Virus record (IMG/VR): IMGVR_UViG_3300019888_000001
Span: 1 to 64,000 of that record
Length of the DNA: 64,000 bases
Source of the DNA: a virus
Strand: one strand, 5' to 3'
Shown here: positions 36,739 through 58,749 of the stretch, piece after piece
Position numbering within the stretch: position 1 is the first letter of the stretch
How the letters are laid out: each line of letters opens with the position of its first letter
Notes under the pieces: model-generated
What the model was told of the DNA's origin: nothing
Seen by the model: only the letters and a program-made list of their open reading frames with translations
Database searches by the model: none
Program-made: the position numbers and the translations under genes

Positions 36739-37185
36739 ATGAAATTTTGTCCTAAATGCAGAAAAACAAAAAGTTTGAAAGCGTTTAATAAAAACCAAAA
36801 AAGATACGACGGCATTCAAGGATGGTGCTCGTCTTGCAGATGTAAAAATTATCAAGAAAGTCCAAAACGAAAAGCGATTATAGCTAAAGCCACTAAATGG
36901 AATTATTCTCACCCCGAACAACGTTTAAAAATAATTAGGAAAAGTAACTGGAAAAGACTTCACGGGCTTACTGAAACTGAATTTTTGAGTTTACTAAAAC
37001 TTCAAAAATCAAAATGTGCTATCTGTAAACAATCATTTCCTAAATTTCCTTCTGTGGATCATAACCATAAAACAGGAAAAATTAGAGGACTACTCTGTGG
37101 AAAACGTAACTCAGGATTAGGATTCTTTAAGGACACAGTTAAATTTCTGCGTAACGCAATTAGATATTTAAATGCAAACGATTAG
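36739..37185 (+). CDS. Endonuclease VII-like protein
   Basis: 'CAIC..VDHNHKTGKIRGLLC...NSGLGFF'. Confidence 0.85.
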   Translation: MKFCPKCRKTKSLKAFNKNQKRYDGIQGWCSSCRCKNYQESPKRKAIIAKATKWNYSHPEQRLKIIRKSNWKRLHGLTETEFLSLLKLQKSKCAICKQSFPKFPSVDHNHKTGKIRGLLCGKRNSGLGFFKDTVKFLRNAIRYLNAND

Positions 37186-38956
37186 TTTGGACTACGAAAC
37201 TGAATACAGTAAAGACTACTCTATTCGAGACATGGGCGCCTGGGCTTATTGCAACGACCCACGCTTCAACGCATATCTGTTAGCTGTGGCTTGGGAAGAT
37301 GGGCGAACTTGGATAGGGAACCCCAAAGACTTTGACTGGGAATCTATTAACGGGTTAGACTGGGTTGCTGCGAATGCCGGTTTTGAATGGGAAGTAACCG
37401 AACGATTACGTAAAGACGGCGTGGTTCCAGCGCACATTAAACCCCGAAAAATTTATGACGTGCTAGATTTAAGCCGATACCTGGGGTATCCGGGAAATCT
37501 AAACGCCGCATGTCAGTATCTTCTCAACGTAAAAATTGACAAAGGGATGCGAGACCGCGCCAAAAACCAGACCTGGGTCTCAATGTCGCCAGATTTCCAG
37601 GATGCAATGAAGCAATACGCACTTCTGGATGCGGTTCATGAATTATCAATTTGGCAAAAGCACGGGCACAAAATGCCCGAAGATGAGCGCATGCTTTCTC
37701 GACTAACCCGTATCATGTGCCGCCAGGGCGTGCCCATCGATGTGCCGGCTGTAGATGACGCCATTTCAAAACTCGAAGCGTATCTCGCCGACATACGAAG
37801 CCGAATTCCTTGGACCACTGATCCCACGATTCCGGTTATGTCACCGAAGGCGATGGCTAAAGAATGCCTTAAAAAAGGAGTGGCTCCGCCTACGTCGATG
37901 GCCAAAGACTCCGAGGCCTTTGCTGCATGGTTGAAAGAGCATGGTGATATGTTTCCATTCGCGGTAGCGATAGGCCAATATCGGAGTGCTAACAATCTTT
38001 TGAAAAAACTCCAGACCATGAAGCGGCGAACGCGACTGGATGGAGTTATGCCTTTTGGTTTGAAATATTTCGGAGGTCACACTGGCAGGGACTCAGGAGA
38101 TTCAGGATTCAATGTTCAAAATTTACACCGCGAGCCCTACACCTGCACGCCCACTAAAGGGGAGCATTTTAAGATCGATCTGCGCGGCATGATCGCCGCG
38201 CCAACAGGAAAACTACTTTTAATTGCAGACGAAGTGGCTATTGAGCCATGCGTATTGGCGGTTCTATCCGAAGATAAAGAACTTCTGAAGCGCTTATCAA
38301 CCGGCGAAGACGTTTACGAAGCGTGGGCCCGGCTTACGAAAGGTTACGCTGACCCAAGACCGCTAAATGATGTGGATCCCCGGATGCGACGGCTTTGTAA
38401 AGTAGAGCAATTGGGGTTATCGTACGGGGCCGGCGTGGAGAAATGTATCAAGATAGCCAAAATGTGGGCTGGCATTGATTTAACGTATCAACAAGCCCAG
38501 CTTCAGGTGGCTAAATTTAGAGAGCGACCGTTCATCCCTAGATTTTGGCAGAAGCTCGAAAGCCTGATGACACGAAGCGCTGGAGAAGATTTTCAATTCG
38601 AGCTGCCGAGTGGAAGAATAATGAATTACCGAAAAGTCCAAACAGTTAATGGACTTAGCGCGGAGATACCTAAATTAGGGCAAATGCTTCGTTGTCGTTT
38701 TTGGGGTGGAGCAATTTGTGAAAATATTATCCAAAGCGTTGGCCGTGATGTATTTATGCATCATATTTTAGAACTCCAAAAAAAAGGTATAAATATAATT
38801 TGTAGAATTCATGATGAGGTTCTGTGTTTAGTTGATGAAGATAAAGCCGAGGAAAGCTTAAAACTAGCCTTACAGATAATGTCTACCCCACCGCCCTGGT
38901 TAACAAATCTTCCTATTCGGGCTGCCGGACATCTTTCCCAAAAATATTGTAAATGA
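37172..38956 (+). CDS. polA: DNA polymerase family A with 3'-5' exonuclease
   Basis: Exo 'LDYET','ANAGFE','YALLD'; 'HTGR.SG..N.QN'; motif A 'ADEVAIE'; motif B 'R..CK...LG.SYG'; motif C 'IHDE'. Confidence 0.9.
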   Translation: MQTISLDYETEYSKDYSIRDMGAWAYCNDPRFNAYLLAVAWEDGRTWIGNPKDFDWESINGLDWVAANAGFEWEVTERLRKDGVVPAHIKPRKIYDVLDLSRYLGYPGNLNAACQYLLNVKIDKGMRDRAKNQTWVSMSPDFQDAMKQYALLDAVHELSIWQKHGHKMPEDERMLSRLTRIMCRQGVPIDVPAVDDAISKLEAYLADIRSRIPWTTDPTIPVMSPKAMAKECLKKGVAPPTSMAKDSEAFAAWLKEHGDMFPFAVAIGQYRSANNLLKKLQTMKRRTRLDGVMPFGLKYFGGHTGRDSGDSGFNVQNLHREPYTCTPTKGEHFKIDLRGMIAAPTGKLLLIADEVAIEPCVLAVLSEDKELLKRLSTGEDVYEAWARLTKGYADPRPLNDVDPRMRRLCKVEQLGLSYGAGVEKCIKIAKMWAGIDLTYQQAQLQVAKFRERPFIPRFWQKLESLMTRSAGEDFQFELPSGRIMNYRKVQTVNGLSAEIPKLGQMLRCRFWGGAICENIIQSVGRDVFMHHILELQKKGINIICRIHDEVLCLVDEDKAEESLKLALQIMSTPPPWLTNLPIRAAGHLSQKYCK

Positions 38957-41885: not shown

Positions 41886-42737
41886 ATGGACACCGCCCAC
41901 ACACAGTTTGATTTTACCTCCTGCCCTAAAAGTGGGCAAGGTTGTCATAAATGGTTGTTTTATATTTCGTGTAAAGCAGTTGATGAAGGCCTAACAGATG
42001 AAGAAGCAGAACCTTTGATTCGCAAAGCAATGACGCGCGCACCAACACCGCCGAGTGAGATCATGGACGCGCTACGAAGTGCGCGCAGGGAAGAAAGAGT
42101 GCCGTCGATGGTGTGGAACCCGAGGAACGAAACCGCGATTAAGGAAATCGTGGGCAAAGACTTGTTGCCGGGGTTGAACAAATACCAAAACTTCGAGCCG
42201 CTATCCAGACTACCCCAACCGGAAATGTGGATAGACCAGTTATTTCCGGGAAATCCTTTATTATGTATCGGGAAAACCAGTTCATTATTCCGAACAAAAC
42301 CAAGAGAAGAATGGCGCGGGTTGGAAAAATTCAATTCATTGATCGTTCCAAGTCCTATGACCGCGGTAAAAGGAAGAACAAAAGCAGGAACTTTATCAGA
42401 GCACTCGTTAGACAATACCGGGCCGCGGCGCTATCTAATTCTCGAATTCGATCAGGGGCCTGAACTAGACCAGCTAAAGTTAATATTTCATCTTGCCGAT
42501 TATGGCCCACTTGTGCTAATATGCCGATCAGGGGGAAAAAGTTTGCATGCGTGGTTTAGAGCAAAAGACGAAGAAGATTTAAAACTCATAACGTTTATGC
42601 AATACGGGGTAAGCCTTGGCGCCGATCCGCGAACTTGGCTGGCCAGTCAGTTCGTTAGGCTCCCTGACGGAACTCGGTTTGAAAACAAAAACCCCCAATC
42701 TGTAATTTACTACGACCCAGAACAACTTCCACAATGA
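41886..42737 (+). CDS. Primase (AEP/RepB-like)
   Basis: 'ILEFD','SGGKSLHAWF','RLPDG.R'; upstream of the D5-like helicase. Confidence 0.75.
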   Translation: MDTAHTQFDFTSCPKSGQGCHKWLFYISCKAVDEGLTDEEAEPLIRKAMTRAPTPPSEIMDALRSARREERVPSMVWNPRNETAIKEIVGKDLLPGLNKYQNFEPLSRLPQPEMWIDQLFPGNPLLCIGKTSSLFRTKPREEWRGLEKFNSLIVPSPMTAVKGRTKAGTLSEHSLDNTGPRRYLILEFDQGPELDQLKLIFHLADYGPLVLICRSGGKSLHAWFRAKDEEDLKLITFMQYGVSLGADPRTWLASQFVRLPDGTRFENKNPQSVIYYDPEQLPQ

Positions 42738-44149
42738 AGAAAGAATTTAGGACACCACCTCTAACACCAACGGGCGTATATCCTGTAAACGATCTCGACC
42801 GCGCAGCAAGGTTCGTGCAACACCTGAAGGGTGAAGCGCTGTATATCTCGTCTTGGAAACAGTGGGTAATTTGGGATGGCAAGCATTGGGCGCGCGATAT
42901 CACCGGTGGCGAAATCATGCGCCGAGCGATGCAAATACCGAAGATTCTGGAGGCAGAGGCTTCAGTTATCACTGATTCAGGGTTACATAAGAAAGCTATG
43001 ATGGCCGCACTCCTATCCGGTAACGAAGAACGGTTAACGAAGATGGTGAAGCTCGCAAGAAGTTTTCCAGAAGTCGACAAATCGGAGATGGTGTTTGACC
43101 AGAACCCGTGGATCGTTGGAGTCCAGAATGGTGTTATAGAGCTTCAGTCGAAACCATTTTTATTCAGACCTGCAAAACTAGAAGATTATGTATTACGGAA
43201 AATGAATGTTGAGTATGACGCGGTGGCTACCTGCGAGCCTTGGATGGATGCTATTCAATTAAGCCTGCCTAACCCCGCAGTCAGGAACTTTGTGCAGCGC
43301 GCGGTAGGTTACAGTATTACAGGAAGCGTCGCAGAGCAGATATGGTTTTTCATGTATGGGCACGGTCAGAACGGCAAATCTACCTTTATAGAAACGATTT
43401 CCGATATTCTTGGCGAGTATGCCCATAAAGCGCCAGCAAAGTTGTTTCTCCAAAACAAGCATGGCACAACGCCGGAAGGATCGATCGCGCAACTAAATGG
43501 CCGACGATTCGTGGTAGGCAGCGAGATTCCAGAATCTGCTCAATTGGCAGAAGGGCTTATTAAAGACTTAGCGTCCGATGACAAATTAAGTGGGCGCCTA
43601 TTGTATGAAAACGATCGGACCTTCGCGCCGACCCACCACCTGTGGTTAAGTGGAAATGTAAAACCGGTTATCAAGTCTACTGATTTAGGAACTTGGCGCC
43701 GAATTAAGCTTATCCCGTTCGACGTCACCATCCAAAATCGAGATCTGGAGATTAAAAATAAGCTCCGCGCCGTAGCGCCGGGTATACTCAATTGGGTTTT
43801 AGATGGCTGTAGGCAATGGCAAACCTCTGGTATGCAAGCCCCACCAGAAGTGGAAGTAGCTACCACAGGCTACCAAGAAGAAGAAGACCTGGCCGGGCAG
43901 TTCATTTCTGAGGTATGTATCTTAGATGAAGCGGAGCGTATTGCCAAAGGAGACCTTTATGCGGCTTTTAAGGCTTGGGCTATTTTAAATGGCGAAAATG
44001 AACGATATATACCTGGCATCAAGACATTTGGGAAGCGTATGAGCCGCCCTGGAATCCGGGAAATGCTCGATCCAGACCCTAAAAAGCGCACCCGAATGTG
44101 GGCCGGAATCAATCTAGCAGAGCCAGGCCGCTGGCCTAAACTGGCATAA
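42734..44149 (+). CDS. D5/P4-type SF3 helicase
   Basis: D5_N 'W..WDGKHW','NGVIEL'; Walker A GHGQNGKS; 'GTWRRI..IPF'. Confidence 0.9.
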   Translation: MKKEFRTPPLTPTGVYPVNDLDRAARFVQHLKGEALYISSWKQWVIWDGKHWARDITGGEIMRRAMQIPKILEAEASVITDSGLHKKAMMAALLSGNEERLTKMVKLARSFPEVDKSEMVFDQNPWIVGVQNGVIELQSKPFLFRPAKLEDYVLRKMNVEYDAVATCEPWMDAIQLSLPNPAVRNFVQRAVGYSITGSVAEQIWFFMYGHGQNGKSTFIETISDILGEYAHKAPAKLFLQNKHGTTPEGSIAQLNGRRFVVGSEIPESAQLAEGLIKDLASDDKLSGRLLYENDRTFAPTHHLWLSGNVKPVIKSTDLGTWRRIKLIPFDVTIQNRDLEIKNKLRAVAPGILNWVLDGCRQWQTSGMQAPPEVEVATTGYQEEEDLAGQFISEVCILDEAERIAKGDLYAAFKAWAILNGENERYIPGIKTFGKRMSRPGIREMLDPDPKKRTRMWAGINLAEPGRWPKLA

Positions 44150-48809: not shown

Positions 48810-48890
48810 AGCAGGATGGACAAGTTCGGTTTAAGTCGCCACGCTCATAACGTGGAGAATTCGTGGGTTCAAATCCCACTCCTGCAACCA
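48810..48890 (+). tRNA. tRNA with CAT anticodon (Met/fMet-like or Ile2)
   Basis: Acceptor GCAGGA/TCCTGC, anticodon arm CCACG-CTCATAA-CGTGG, T arm GTGGG-TTCAAAT-CCCAC, encoded CCA. Confidence 0.9.
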
Positions 48891-50510: not shown

Positions 50511-50813
50511 TTAGCTCGTTGTCGCGCCTGTAGGCCCGGTAGGCCCCGCGGGTAGCAACGCTGTTACGCTTTGAGTCGCGGCTTTTAAGTTCGCGAGTGC
50601 CGTATCGACCGCCGGGGTTGTTCCGCCGGCAGAGGCCAATGCAGCTTCGAGAGCTGTGACCCCAACACCAATTGCAGTTACTTGATCAGCCACTGCTTGA
50701 ATGTCGAGAGCTTCTTGGGATTGCGTTTCCATAATGGTATGCTCCTGGGTTACGAGGCGTTCAAGAAGGTTTTCGATGGCCTTCAAGCGCGACTCTATGT
50801 TTCGTTTCGTCAT
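50511..50813 (-). CDS. Helical hypothetical protein ending GPTGPTG
   Basis: Ala-rich coiled-coil ORF. Confidence 0.55.
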   Translation of the reverse strand: MTKRNIESRLKAIENLLERLVTQEHTIMETQSQEALDIQAVADQVTAIGVGVTALEAALASAGGTTPAVDTALANLKAATQSVTALLPAGPTGPTGATTS

Positions 50814-50966: not shown

Positions 50967-51539
50967 CTAAGGTGATGGCCCGCGGTCGTTTGGTCCGAGC
51001 GGATCAAGAGTGGGCCCAAGCGGTTCGGGCGCTACAACGAGCGGAGCAGGCTGAAGCGCTGGCTCATGCTGAACGGACTCGGGTTTTGGTTCGGTCTGTG
51101 CTTTAAAAAATTTTTCATGTTTGAGGCCAGTTGAAATATAGTATTCTTTATTTTCCGCTCGTTTTATCCAATTACAGTTTGAGCATAGACATTGAAAGTT
51201 GGCAGGGTTATCGCGTACGTATCTATAGTATGCGTGGCGGCTTGGAAAGGTGGCGCGGTGTTTTCTACCTCCTCCATTTATGTGATCAATTTGAAGTGCA
51301 CGAGTATCTAAAAAGCCGCATCGGGCACATTTATTGCCGAGAATGTTTAGAATTAGCACGCGCAAATTTTTGCGATAACGAGCGTCGTTTAGTCGGTGTT
51401 TTTCTGGATGCGCTTGGTTATAACGTTTATCGCAAGCTTTTTTCTTTGCTGTTTTGTTATATTTTTTGGTTCGGCGGATTTTTGAAGCGCGCCCGTTAGG
51501 AGTGCGGCTCCATATTTGATACTGGTTTCGGGTTTGCAT
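50967..51539 (-). CDS. HNH-type homing endonuclease
   Basis: 'CARCG..LQIDHINGGG..HR..CLCSNCN'; the 3' extension runs antisense into 50915-51106. Confidence 0.8.
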   Translation of the reverse strand: MQTRNQYQIWSRTPNGRASKIRRTKKYNKTAKKKACDKRYNQAHPEKHRLNDARYRKNLRVLILNILGNKCARCGFLDTRALQIDHINGGGRKHRATFPSRHAYYRYVRDNPANFQCLCSNCNWIKRAENKEYYISTGLKHEKFFKAQTEPKPESVQHEPALQPAPLVVAPEPLGPTLDPLGPNDRGPSP

Positions 51540-51764
51540 TTAAGATAAATTATAGTATAAAAGAAAGTTTTCAAGATATTTTGTCATCGTAGTGGCGTTT
51601 GTTTTTTCTGTGGCAATTGCTTGTCCGGTATGCACAAAATTTTTGTGACATCAAAAATTAATTTTTTCTTCGAGTTAAAAACCTTGTAACCTTCACGTAC
51701 ATAAGGGCTTACACCCCACTAGGGGAGGCCATTGCACCAGGGGAACCCTGTCATTCTGAATGAA

Positions 51765-51859
51765 TGAAACAAAATTACATTGAAACAAAATTACATTGAA
51801 ACAAAATCATAGTGTTACCGTGTTACCGTGTTACCGTGTTACCGTGTTACCGTGTTACC
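51765..51859. repeat. Tandem repeats: 16-mer x~3 and 8-mer x6
   Basis: TGAAACAAAATTACAT at 51765, 51781 and a variant at 51797; GTGTTACC x6 at 51812-51859. Confidence 0.95.
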
Positions 51860-51892
51860 TTGCGGCACCGGGCGTAGCGTGGAAGGTTTTCG

Positions 51893-51980
51893 CAATTATG
51901 AGTCGCAGTGTTGCAATTTGTCCTGGATTCCATTGCACCGTTGTCTTGTTGCAGGGTTTCAGGGTTGCGACTCATAATTG
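51893..51980. repeat. 15-bp perfect inverted repeat
   Basis: CAATTATGAGTCGCA (51893-51907) / TGCGACTCATAATTG (51966-51980). Confidence 0.9.
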
Positions 51981-52057
51981 AGATTGCTGAGGACTACCGT
52001 TTATCCAACATCGAGGATAAAAAATAGTTACCTAAGAGAAATAGTGTTGATGAAGTG

Positions 52058-52074
52058 TTGGCACGAGCTTTGCT
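52058..52074 (+). promoter_or_regulatory. Sigma-54 (-24/-12) promoter
   Basis: TTGGCACGAGCTTTGCT matches YTGGCACGRNNNTTGCW with correct GG-N10-GC spacing. Confidence 0.7.
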
Positions 52075-52083
52075 AATGCCCTT

Positions 52084-52860
52084 GTTGCCTCGGATGAAAT
52101 CCGGGCGACCAAAGCAGCGAAGCTACCTTAGGCAGTTTGATCGCAGTGCAGTAGCAGGTGCGATTGCCTATCGGAGTCTAAGTCGCAAGAGTAGCTGCCC
52201 ACAGTCGCGCGAGTAGTAACTGAGGTCGCGGAGCAAAATCGTGGTGGCTTTGTCCAACACGCGGGCAAGCGGTGAAACGTTTGCGAGCGCAATCCTGCGC
52301 TTCTCTATTGTAGAGCAAGAGTCGAAGATACAATGCCGATTAACGGGCGCGCTTGCGTGCTTTACGGCTGAACATGACCTTGTAAAACTGCGATAAGAAT
52401 CTACATGCGGCACGAAATGAGAGCGAGACCGCAAAAAGAACGTGCGAGGAAACTCAATATCTCGGCAAAGCTGGTAATGTCAGCAAACGCGAAAGCGGTC
52501 AAGTGACCGCTAAATCGTAGGGAAATTGGCGGCTAGTTGGACTGCAAACTATTAGAAAAGCCAGTCGAAACGAAACGTGGCGCACCTAAGGGCAATAAAA
52601 GGATTCGGCGCTAATTGCGCGGAGTCGAATAAGCTGTGAAGCTGCACAGTAACATCAAAACAAAGCGGCCACCCGGTAGGGATGGTGGATTTCTATTAGG
52701 CGTGACGCCTATTAACTAAGCATCTCGCGCGGCCGCGATGGTCTGCGCTGAACTAGAGAAATCTGTTAGCGGGCGCACAAGGCGCGCCCGTTTGCACTCT
52801 CAATCTTACACTTGCGCGCATGTGTGTGCGTTGCGAGGCAAAAACAAGTAAGGTTGAGAA
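52084..52860 (+). ncRNA. Candidate large structured non-coding RNA or long structured leader
   Basis: No + strand ORF; consecutive helices with GNRA/CUUG loops and G-U pairs; starts at the predicted sigma-54 TSS. Confidence 0.6.
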
Positions 52861-52869
52861 AATCAAACT

Positions 52870-53319
52870 ATGGATAACCAATTAACAGTATTCGTGGAGC
52901 AAACGAACGCCCAGATTGCTATTTCCAAAGCTATCGGACTGCCTATCGAGGTAATCCGAAGCAATGGTTCTAAAGCAAACTTCAAGACGTTCGCAGACTC
53001 GCGCGGAGTAGTTATCGACAAAACGGATTCGGATTTTGACAAAGATGCCGCAAGGGCACTTCGCGCAGAATTTAATTCGTTAGTCGCGGAATATCACGCG
53101 AAAATTAAACCAATCGCAGCGGGAATGCTCGCAGCGGACGGTTTCCGCGTGGCTTCATTGCAGCCTAAATACAACGCTAAATCGGGCGAGTATCAAGGCT
53201 GCAATATCGCAGTTCGACGTGAATTGAAGGGCGCGGCCCTTACACTTCGCGGCGAAAACGCGTTGCTCCGAAAGCAGCTTGCTGAACTGCAAGCCAAGCT
53301 ATCAGCGTTACCAGCCTAA
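52870..53319 (+). CDS. Hypothetical protein, first gene of the early-like region
   Basis: 149 aa with a C-terminal coiled coil. Confidence 0.6.
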   Translation: MDNQLTVFVEQTNAQIAISKAIGLPIEVIRSNGSKANFKTFADSRGVVIDKTDSDFDKDAARALRAEFNSLVAEYHAKIKPIAAGMLAADGFRVASLQPKYNAKSGEYQGCNIAVRRELKGAALTLRGENALLRKQLAELQAKLSALPA

Positions 53320-53852
53320 CCAAAGCAGGCAATAGCCTACTTTGCGAAAAACTGCGCTCAATCTAGGTAGGTTGAGCGCAGACTTCGCAGATTTTATGAG
53401 ACATCACACGAAAAATGTCTCTCCGCGAAAAGAAAAACGGCATTTGCTTAATCAAATCGCAATTTGTCGAGCGTTAGCGGCGAGGCATCAAATGACACGA
53501 TCAGAACGCTCTTGGATGAACGAGCGCCAACGTATCGTTTTTCAGATTAAGATTTTGAAAGGGCAACTAGCCCGAAGTTAATAGTCAGCGCATAGCCTGC
53601 GCTCGTTATGAACGGCGCGTAATACATATCCCGCCTGTGGTATGTTCAAGCGCGATTAACAGGCACAATTTTCATCGCCGAAACGGTTGGGTTAAAGTCC
53701 CACTCTACAGGCTTGGAAGATATCGAACACGACGCGAGAAATCTGTATTCGTGTGCTCCGGCAGCCCGATGATTATTTACACTACAACTGCGCTCGATCT
53801 GAGCGAATAGCCCGATAAAAACGCGCAGTCGGGCACAATTTACGTTACATTT

Positions 53853-57464: not shown

Positions 57465-57887
57465 ATGGAAGACCCAATAAAACACCGCGATAAATTTATG
57501 AAGCACATTCTTCTAACAGGAGCCGCGCTTATGGTAGCCGGCTGCGCGGATATCCCAACTCATTCCACAAAAGCGCGCGTTACGTTTTACTCACGAGGCG
57601 AAGATAAATACGGTTCGCGTATCGCCACTGGCGGACGTGCACGAGAAGGTCGCACAGTTGCAGCCTCGACTTTAGTTCCGTTTGGAACAGGAATCCAAAT
57701 ACCCGGCTTGGCCGGAATCGTTGGTAACGGAAGATTTGTCTGCGAAGATCGTGGTTCAGCAGTGAATCGGGAACGAGCAAGCAGAGGACAGGCGCCGGTG
57801 ATTGATGTATATTGCGCGTCGCCTGCTAAACGACGACGGCTAGCTCGATCACTTCCTGAATATATGGAGATTAAATATGATAACTAA
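57465..57887 (+). CDS. 3D-domain (MltA-like) lipoprotein
   Basis: Lipobox VAGC; 'TVAA....PFGT.I.IPG..CEDRG.AV..IDVY'. Confidence 0.75.
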   Translation: MEDPIKHRDKFMKHILLTGAALMVAGCADIPTHSTKARVTFYSRGEDKYGSRIATGGRAREGRTVAASTLVPFGTGIQIPGLAGIVGNGRFVCEDRGSAVNRERASRGQAPVIDVYCASPAKRRRLARSLPEYMEIKYDN

Positions 57888-58749
57888 GCCAATGTTAGCG
57901 GGCAAATGCACAGATATTACTAAGCTGACGTTTCCTGTTTTAGCCACGCCTAAACTCGACGGCATCCGTTGTCTGATGATTAATGGGAAGGCCGTGAGCC
58001 GCAAATTCAAACCAATTCCGAATAAGTTTATCCGAAGCACGCTTGAAATGACTTGCAGCTCAATGCAGCTCGACGGCGAGATAATGATCGAAGGCCGGTC
58101 GTTCAACGATCTGTCTGGCGATGTTCGCCGTGAAGATGGACGACCAGATTTTTATTATGCTGTATTCGATTATGTTAAATACGCCAATTCAGACCCCTAT
58201 CCGAAGCGGGCGCAACATTTACGAGAAGTAATTCTCCCTGCATGTTGTCGTAAGATTCTGCCAGTGCCGATTGACACTATAGAACAGTTGCAAGCGTATG
58301 AGCAAGAGCAAGTGGCTCTAGGCTACGAGGGAGTTATGGTTCGGTCGTTGCTTTCTCCTTATAAAGGCGGGCGCAGCACGGAGAACGAAGGCTATCTGCT
58401 AAAAATAAAACGTTTCGAGGATGCCGAGGCCGTAGTCGTCGGATATCGCGAAATGATGCACAATGACAATGTCACTACAAAAGACGCTTTTGGGCGCAGC
58501 GAACGAAGCAGTCACAAAGAAAATCTACGTGGAGCCGGCGTGTTGGGAAACCTCGAGTGTAAAGCCAAGCCCTGGACGACAACATTCGAAATTGGCACCG
58601 GATTCGACGCTAAAACACGGTCTGACCTGTGGGCCAACCGAGATAAGCTTATAGGAAAATTGGTCAAGTTTCGACACCAACCAAGCGGAGCCGGCGCCCG
58701 GCCTCGGTTCCCTACGTTTATTGGCTTCCGTGACGAATGGGATTTATGA
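57877..58749 (+). CDS. ATP-dependent DNA ligase
   Basis: KLDGIR motif I, 'LDGEI', 'GYEGVMVR', 'LLKIK', 'IGTGF', 'PRFP'. Confidence 0.92.
   Translation: MITKPMLAGKCTDITKLTFPVLATPKLDGIRCLMINGKAVSRKFKPIPNKFIRSTLEMTCSSMQLDGEIMIEGRSFNDLSGDVRREDGRPDFYYAVFDYVKYANSDPYPKRAQHLREVILPACCRKILPVPIDTIEQLQAYEQEQVALGYEGVMVRSLLSPYKGGRSTENEGYLLKIKRFEDAEAVVVGYREMMHNDNVTTKDAFGRSERSSHKENLRGAGVLGNLECKAKPWTTTFEIGTGFDAKTRSDLWANRDKLIGKLVKFRHQPSGAGARPRFPTFIGFRDEWDL

Follow-up and report, generated by a model that had tools for sequence, protein, structure and literature searches.

A candidate structured leader RNA behind a sigma-54-type promoter in an uncultured soil phage lineage

Positions 52085–52869 of the phage DNA analyzed here lie between a sigma-54-type promoter element and a conserved gene for a 149-amino acid (aa) protein, and form a stretch without credible open reading frames (ORFs). 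The window spans the opening 64 kb of an IMG/VR virus record of 82,110 bp (IMGVR_UViG_3300019888_000001), classed as carrying direct terminal repeats; soil metagenome runs from three studies carry near-identical DNA. We propose, with about even confidence, that the stretch is the + strand, RNA-level leader of a small sigma-54-driven unit, a string of hairpins of which two are kept by compensatory substitution. The proposed unit would comprise the promoter, the leader, the 149-aa gene, and a terminator-like hairpin beyond it (Table 1), and the leader would be modular, with local hairpins in series instead of one global fold. An RNA-level reading is supported for the 3′ third of the stretch and plausible for the rest. 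A single RNA of a new class, ~780 nucleotides (nt) long, as put forward in the initial annotation, is not supported by the sole relative, in which the 5′ part and 52480–52578 have been replaced.

That relative provides the main evidence. Among public contigs, one contig related to 51540–53319 was recovered (1,087 nt, run X5, from a different soil study). At an alignment threshold of 80% likeness it matches 52381–52479 and 52579–53319, covering 386 of 781 non-coding nt; 52480–52578 (99 nt) is swapped for 100 unlike letters, and the final 88 nt of the contig, before 52381, are unlike the window. The listing gives 38 of 49 differences for the long aligned piece and 2 of 4 for the short one, and the non-coding part holds 26 listed substitutions and two 1-nt indels. 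When the listed substitutions are placed on the + strand minimum free energy (MFE) fold, four fully compensatory double changes appear: two in the hairpin at 52668–52686 (52671/52683, A-U to U-A; 52673/52680, C-G to U-A) and two in the terminal hairpin at 52798–52859 (52808/52849, A-U to G-C; 52817/52830, C-G to U-A). Four one-sided changes retain their pair via G.U (52623, 52708, 52766, 52813), two break a pair (52626, at a hairpin base, and 52742, in a doubtful long-range pair), and 12 fall at unpaired positions. When 26 substitutions were scattered at random over the 386 nt (20,000 trials), compensatory pairs averaged 0.15 and four or more were never reached, and two or fewer breaks arose at a frequency of 0.00015; a hand estimate that allows for local clustering puts the two double changes of each hairpin at ~10^-3. 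On the − strand MFE fold, the same substitutions yield one compensatory pair, six compatible changes, and seven breaks, and of the five one-sided stem transitions, four are G.U on the + strand and one is G.U on the − strand only. These patterns support selection for + strand RNA pairing in at least these two hairpins. The initial annotation's proposal of RNA-level structure is thus supported for two hairpins that carry compensatory pairs; architecture is not conserved along the entire length in the sole relative.

Table 1. Positions of the promoter element, leader hairpins, and flanking features in the window
Feature	Position	Strand	Remarks
Inverted repeats, 18-nt arms	51890–51907/51966–51983		upstream of promoter
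Inverted repeat TTTATCC-N8-GGATAAA	52000–52021		upstream of promoter
Sigma-54-type −24/−12 element TGGCACG-N4-TTGCT	52059–52074	+	TGGCACGAGCTTTGCT, exact consensus match
ORF-free, G+C-rich, purine-rich stretch, candidate structured leader RNA	52085–52869	+	~785 nt
5′ hairpin	52084–52109	+	directly after promoter
Best-kept block	52381–52479	+	4 differences in 99 nt; 2 listed, both in internal loop
Stacked hairpin, 5-bp/3-bp	52410–52445	+	within best-kept block
Hairpin GAG-GAAA-CUC	52446–52456	+	within best-kept block
Variable block	52480–52578	+	window has CGC-GAAA-GCG and AGCGGUC-AAGU-GACCGCU hairpins
Hairpin GAUUC.GCGC-loop-GCGC.GAGUC	52602–52626	+	in relative, one pair kept as U.G, closing pair broken
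7-bp hairpin GCCACCC-GGUA-GGG(A)UGGU	52668–52686	+	two compensatory double changes
G+C-rich 9-bp hairpin	52768–52792	+	3′ arm = 11-mer GCGCGCCCGTT
Terminal hairpin, 62 nt, ~23 bp	52798–52859	+	ends 10 nt before ATG at 52870
149-aa protein gene, first after leader	52870–53319	+	conserved, no family match of note
21-bp hairpin, terminator-like, then UUUUAU	53341–53392	+	−30.7 kcal/mol, internal loop

The two covarying hairpins, together with the hairpin at 52768–52792, lie in a 3′ part of ~290 nt that carries at least 24 listed substitutions; its substitution rate is about half to two-thirds of the synonymous rate of the neighboring gene, a rough figure given the unlisted differences. The terminal hairpin is built of a 12-bp lower stem, an asymmetric internal loop, and a 6+5-bp upper stem, and its U.G pair at 52813 becomes C-G in the relative. 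Similarly, the hairpin at 52768–52792 is extended by an outer 3-bp stem (52764–52766/52794–52796) in which 52766 U>C turns a U.G pair (52766/52794) into C-G. In the hairpin at 52602–52626, the change 52623 A>G preserves its pair in U.G form; 52626 C>A disrupts the G-C pair that closes the hairpin.

The base of the terminal hairpin recurs on the far side of the 149-aa gene. The stem base CUCAAUCU/AGGUUGAG is common to this hairpin and the terminator-like hairpin at 53341–53392, where it forms an inner stem base; CTCAATCT and AGGTTGAG each occur twice in 82 kb, only as the paired stem bases of these two hairpins. Both copies of the motif contain the identical U.G wobble, and in the relative the motif is unchanged and the pair just above it covaries. 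Ribonuclease III (RNase III) recognizes helices spanning about two turns and containing internal loops, and its idealized substrate is described as 22 bp long (PMC3867540); with ~23 and 21 bp, respectively, and internal loops, both hairpins resemble such an irregular ~22-bp helix. Each spanning about two helical turns, the hairpins would most likely act as paired recognition signals bracketing the gene, whether for cleavage, stabilization of the messenger RNA (mRNA), or protein binding; any processing at them is presumed.

The bracketed 149-aa ORF is a real gene, as indicated by the location of 13 of its 14 listed substitutions in the relative at third codon positions. Four homolog clusters of the protein were found (97, 72, 68, and 66% identity), and by hand reading the contig of the relative agrees with one of them, P0001, at two residues (N37K and L71F). 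The protein has no meaningful match in Pfam, PHROG, or NCBIfam and no usable match in the ESM Atlas; a PDB sequence profile gave a best E of 0.3, and a double-stranded RNA-binding protein at E 0.48 was non-significant and was set aside. Within the ORF, one pair (53109/53142) is compensatory, with both changes at third codon positions, and 4 of 11 paired substitutions break pairs.

At the other end of the leader, the consensus −24/−12 element reported in the initial annotation is present, exact, and unique in the window. TGGCACGAGCTTTGCT is the sole exact match to TGGCACGNNNNTTGCW in the 64 kb (0.02 expected; at least one match in 2 of 100 shuffles), and the sigma-54 pattern with up to one mismatch has no match in the remaining 18 kb (64001–82110). 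GG at −24 (52060–52061), GC at −12 (52072–52073), the fixed spacing, and the consensus TGGCACG-N4-TTGCW are all matched, which predicts a start near 52085, and the element is oriented correctly toward both the stretch and the 149-aa gene. A shorter sigma-54 pattern with one mismatch gave 5 matches against 4.24 expected, that is, chance level. The full consensus match is unlikely by chance, and, judging from the sequence, the site is rather probably a working sigma-54 promoter. A sigma-70-type scan of the gap returned one weak + strand match (51780), and no other good + strand promoter was found between the −24/−12 element and the 149-aa gene. Transcription would begin at the sigma-54 site and would depend on a host activator. 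The inverted repeats ~64–195 nt upstream (Table 1) are in the place expected of enhancer sites, and they match no known activator site. No Ribonuclease_3 domain and no integrase or resolvase was found in the phage; together with the lack of an activator gene, this means that activation or processing would need host factors.

Other repeats accompany the promoter region. Tandem arrays occupy 51765–51867, with the 16-mer TGAAACAAAATTACAT in three copies and the 8-mer GTGTTACC in six; Logan assemblies break at the 8-mer array. TAnnTTTG is the −7 element of Bacteroidota promoters. In the gap it occurs on the − strand only, within the 16-mers, which read TAATTTTG on that strand; by this consensus, the 16-mer array may represent tandem leftward promoters of Bacteroidota type. 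A perfect 22-nt inverted repeat (47406–47427/51940–51961, 4.5 kb apart, E 5e-5) encloses a tRNA-Met gene, small ORFs, and a leftward HNH-like gene block, and its right copy lies in the loop of the long inverted repeat at 51890–51983. An inverton, considered for this repeat and for the 14-nt inverted repeat described below, found no support: no integrase or resolvase was found, and aligned contigs contained no strand-changing joints.

The stretch itself is genuinely non-coding and, as the initial annotation held, has no credible + strand ORF. The longest started + strand ORFs are 53 and 51 aa, each with a GTG start, and the longest stop-to-stop frames reach 62 aa (+) and 103 aa (−). With a period-3 signal of 0.49, the stretch ranks at the 2.6th percentile (genome median 3.11), whereas G+C content (51.7% vs. 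46.0% for the genome; 93.7th percentile) and + strand purine content (57.4%; 97.9th percentile) are high; the left part of the gap is A+T-rich, at 39.4% G+C. A hidden gene was rejected for the part covered by the relative, given the missing ORF and period-3 signal, the 1-nt indels at 52744 and 52830, and the lack of protein relatives of the 103-aa − strand frame. Nor does the stretch belong to any described RNA family: at gathering scores, Rfam 15 identified only a tRNA (48810–48887) in the whole window, and even at E ≤ 10 there were no matches over 51400–53000. The models covered included GOLLD, ROOL, OLE, RNase P, group I/II introns, riboswitches, 6S, and tmRNA, in agreement with the earlier statement that no family could be assigned.

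Folding energy is less telling. All twelve helices listed in the initial annotation occur in the sequence as written, and its phrase "highly structured" is only partly borne out by energy: the 781-nt stretch folds modestly more stably than shuffled sequences (MFE z-score −2.91 on the + strand and −2.81 on the − strand; none of 20 shuffles equally stable on either). The description is not exceptional thermodynamically. Fifteen unbiased 100-nt tiles across 52100–52800 have a modest mean z of −1.16 (+) and −0.80 (−), against a genome-wide tile mean of −0.28 (standard deviation 1.20, 329 tiles), while the neighboring coding stretch at 52900–53400 is the more structured one, its tiles averaging about −2.7 (+) and −3.1 (−). 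Three pieces of the 149-aa ORF and its 3′ flank (52890–53450) reach z −3.7 to −5.0, and both strands beat shuffles. Local values within the leader are −3.06 (+) and −2.20 (−) for the best-kept block, −3.98 and −3.40 for 52466–52538, −3.89 and −1.93 for 52600–52652, and −4.64 and −2.44 for 52760–52862. Six of nine sub-domains fold better on the + than on the − strand, though their limits were drawn from the + strand fold and hence favor that strand. Hairpins of ≤ −20 kcal/mol are common throughout 47–60 kb, and such a census does not set the stretch apart from coding DNA. Given these strong hairpins and the structured coding neighbor, helices seen by eye are no strong evidence alone, and since the energy is only modest, the real support comes from the substitutions in the one relative.

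The 11-mer GCGCGCCCGTT, which forms the 3′ arm of the hairpin at 52768–52792, occurs exactly three times, at 51487–51497 (+), 52342–52352 (−), and 52782–52792 (+), against 0.02 expected; all copies lie within 1.3 kb, with none elsewhere in the 82 kb, and beyond 12–14 nt they are unrelated. The 51487 and 52342 copies form a perfect 14-nt inverted repeat (51485–51498 and 52341–52354, 842 nt apart). On the + strand RNA, 52342–52352 is an exact 11-nt complement of 52782–52792, and this pairing could close a ~450-nt domain or compete with local hairpins. The repeat could thus be a site of long-range RNA pairing or a binding site; the copy at 51487, outside the predicted RNA, fits a DNA-binding site and keeps a DNA-level explanation alive.

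Several observations weigh against the leader interpretation. The relative is single and covers 386 of 781 nt, its listing leaves out 11 of the 49 differences of the long piece and two of the four of the short one, and covariation is limited to two hairpins. It is unalignable before 52381 and across 52480–52578, so that a large share of the stretch may be expendable or freely exchanged, and a single conserved 780-nt fold finds no support in it. Each of the four double changes exchanges a Watson-Crick pair for a different one and therefore fits DNA hairpins or either RNA strand equally well; the strand assignment draws on few G.U cases (four vs. one), on composition, and on sub-domain limits derived from the + strand. 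The whole-stretch z is modest and near-equal on both strands, with a coding neighbor that is more structured. No Sigma54_activat domain (PF00158) was found in the 82-kb phage genome, in a search whose control was positive in 14 of 14 genomes, and none of the listed runs carrying the stretch is an RNA run.

Among the alternatives, a free-standing, globally folded non-coding RNA of ~0.8 kb, of a new class on the scale of GOLLD and ROOL and freed by cleavage at the terminal hairpin, appears unlikely. Its size, its G+C and purine enrichment for an intergenic region, and its many GNRA-like loops would suit such an RNA, as would the covariation of two hairpins, the strongly conserved 99-nt block, and the want of an Rfam family; the exact 11-nt internal complement would then close a ~450-nt central domain. 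Yet the relative swaps the 5′ ~300 nt and an internal block of 99 nt, which is unexpected for a conserved tertiary fold, it does not cover the 5′ partner of the long-range pair, and the unbiased tile z is modest. Moreover, no hairpin with a U-tract precedes 52870: the last leader hairpin is followed by AAAAUCAAACUAUG, and the gene begins 10 nt after that hairpin. Without a terminator between the stretch and the gene, a leader is likelier than the free-standing RNA of the initial annotation. The boldest version, which we rate as improbable, would make the stretch the first member of a new ~0.8-kb phage RNA class, gated by the sigma-54 enhancer machinery of the host and cut from mRNA at a dedicated hairpin motif. 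If that were true, a lytic soil phage without its own activator would sense a host stress or nutrient signal via a −24/−12 promoter, the 11-bp helix 52342–52352/52782–52792 would close a central domain, and the motif used for cutting would also mark the end of the gene.

A DNA-level control region (operators, a replication origin, or packaging), with the hairpins as palindromes or cruciforms and RNA incidental, has a low probability in our view. The gap lies at divergent transcription, its left part contains iteron-like arrays (16-mer x3, 8-mer x6) and long inverted repeats, and three exact copies of the 11-mer, in both orientations, fall within 1.3 kb, one of them beyond the predicted RNA; equal whole-stretch z on both strands and the strand neutrality of the four compensatory changes are also in keeping with DNA. 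However, one-sided changes fit + strand G.U four times and − strand G.U once, and seven breaks fall on the − strand fold; the U.G wobble in both copies of the shared motif would be a C.A mismatch on the other strand; the stems covary, keeping pairing but not sequence, which is unusual for operators; and the G+C-rich, purine-skewed stretch is unlike the A+T-rich left gap. Still less probable is a replication-origin transcript, with the purine-rich, structured RNA serving as a pre-primer in a persistent hybrid; ColE1 RNA II and T4 origin transcripts are analogues. Iteron-like repeats and an A+T-rich segment lie just upstream, a G-rich, purine-rich non-template strand favors RNA-DNA hybrids, and the stretch sits between replication genes and DNA ligase, but a sigma-54 promoter would be an odd driver for an origin, and mRNA punctuation better fits a stretch that ends exactly at a conserved gene with its hairpin motif repeated after that gene. 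Finally, decayed genes or several very small early genes, with helices arising by chance, are hardly credible here. Phage early regions are rich in tiny ORFs, ORFs of 33 aa (52405–52506) and 37 aa (52738–52851) are present, and strong hairpins are common in the surrounding 47–60 kb; against this stand the lack of codon periodicity, the longest frame without protein relatives, and compensatory changes far above chance. In the 33-aa ORF, the two listed changes hit first codon positions, and this ORF terminates within the replaced block; the 37-aa ORF is struck by the two 1-nt indels of the relative.

The stretch falls within a 1.33-kb gap (51540–52869) at which transcription diverges, between an HNH-like gene running leftward from 51539 and the 149-aa ORF running rightward from 52870. 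Replication genes are found on one side (DNA polymerase, 37172–38956; D5-like primase-helicase, 42734–44149) and DNA ligase on the other (57877–58749). The lineage is remote from cultured phages: its family-A DNA polymerase has ≤25.9% identity to any of 50,697 phage records, and blastn of the stretch against the same records returned no DNA match. Self-BLAST found no paralog of the stretch elsewhere in its own genome. Scans of viral contigs with single proteins (the 149-aa protein; the D5-like protein) found no relatives. Profile A1 had no match among metagenome contigs and none among genome contigs; against viral contigs it identified two loci (L003 and L004), with a 49-residue, 45% match that forms part of a longer ORF with other surroundings. 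When conserved blocks were used as exact DNA probes, four scans of viral contigs and one of genome contigs gave no match, and one metagenome-contig match (L006), a bacterial contig with only a 20-nt probe in common, was rejected as a chance match.

With regard to the host, the glycosyltransferase queried in the ESM Atlas returned viral clusters only. A Shine-Dalgarno motif precedes 15 of 87 ORF starts, compared with 10.6 ± 2.8 for random sites; the signal is essentially absent from this genome, which suggests a host lineage that initiates translation without it. Bacteroidota are such Shine-Dalgarno-poor hosts, and we regard a host of this kind, for example, in the Bacteroidota, as a lead and not a finding. 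The record's start (1–60) and end (81911–82110) both lie inside a Gly-X-Y, collagen-like coding repeat, so that the "direct terminal repeat" may stem from assembly over an internal repeat and not from true genome ends. The largest ORF of the genome (L005, 1,947 aa) is at 71266–77109 on the − strand. A 100-aa protein (50511–50813, −) has a weak match to the NCBIfam prokaryotic gasdermin (E 8e-4; 19.2 bits against a cut-off of 100), which is probably compositional.

If the leader interpretation is correct, the closest parallel would be T7 early RNA, which is punctuated by RNase III processing hairpins at R0.3 and between the early genes. In both cases a non-coding leader of several hundred nt separates the promoter from the first early-side gene, and hairpins of about two turns with internal loops, alike in sequence, closely flank a gene on both sides. 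This phage differs in having a promoter of sigma-54 type instead of sigma-70 and a leader about twice as long, and it encodes no RNase III. T7-like punctuation is proposed as a working analogy and not as a claim of membership. Structured non-coding transcripts that depend on sigma-54 include GlmY/GlmZ and the Y-RNA operon rsr-yrlBA-rtcBA of enterobacteria. These share with the stretch an exact −24/−12 promoter before a structured non-coding RNA, which implies a host enhancer-binding ATPase; they differ in that there is no sequence or Rfam similarity, and the element described here lies in a phage that brings no activator gene, and it has no known activator site. Phage sigma-54 promoters are rarely reported, and among titles and abstract openings in the literature no report of phage use of such promoters was found. 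A promoter of this type without a phage activator would tie a phage gene block to a host signaling ATPase and so sense the state of the host.

GOLLD and ROOL are described as large phage-associated RNAs that form Rfam families (PMC12286853). Like them, the stretch is hundreds of nt long, is found in a phage genome, and has many hairpins and an unknown function. The likeness drawn in the initial annotation is nonetheless one of size only: the stretch matches neither these nor other Rfam models at E ≤ 10, half of it is replaced in the relative, and it adjoins a gene without a terminator of its own. If the whole 0.8 kb folded as a single RNA, soil viruses would contribute a large RNA class. The PeSL of T4-like phages, described as promoter/stem-loop cassettes in which repeated stem-loops flank variable genes (PMC4122927), similarly set repeated stem-loops on either side of a small, functionally unassigned gene within a variable region, and mosaic block replacement in a close relative is as expected if the repeats are exchange points. 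Here, by contrast, there are only two copies, no early promoter is recognizable in the hairpins, and the covariation of the stems speaks for a function as RNA, beyond simple homology for recombination. By analogy, then, the closest functional match of the stretch would be a long phage leader whose hairpins serve processing or stability. It departs from such leaders in its sigma-54-type promoter, its length, and a private hairpin motif that flanks an orphan gene on either side; with its selected hairpins and this motif around a conserved orphan gene, the long leader would offer a compact and testable case of RNA-level control in an uncultured lineage.

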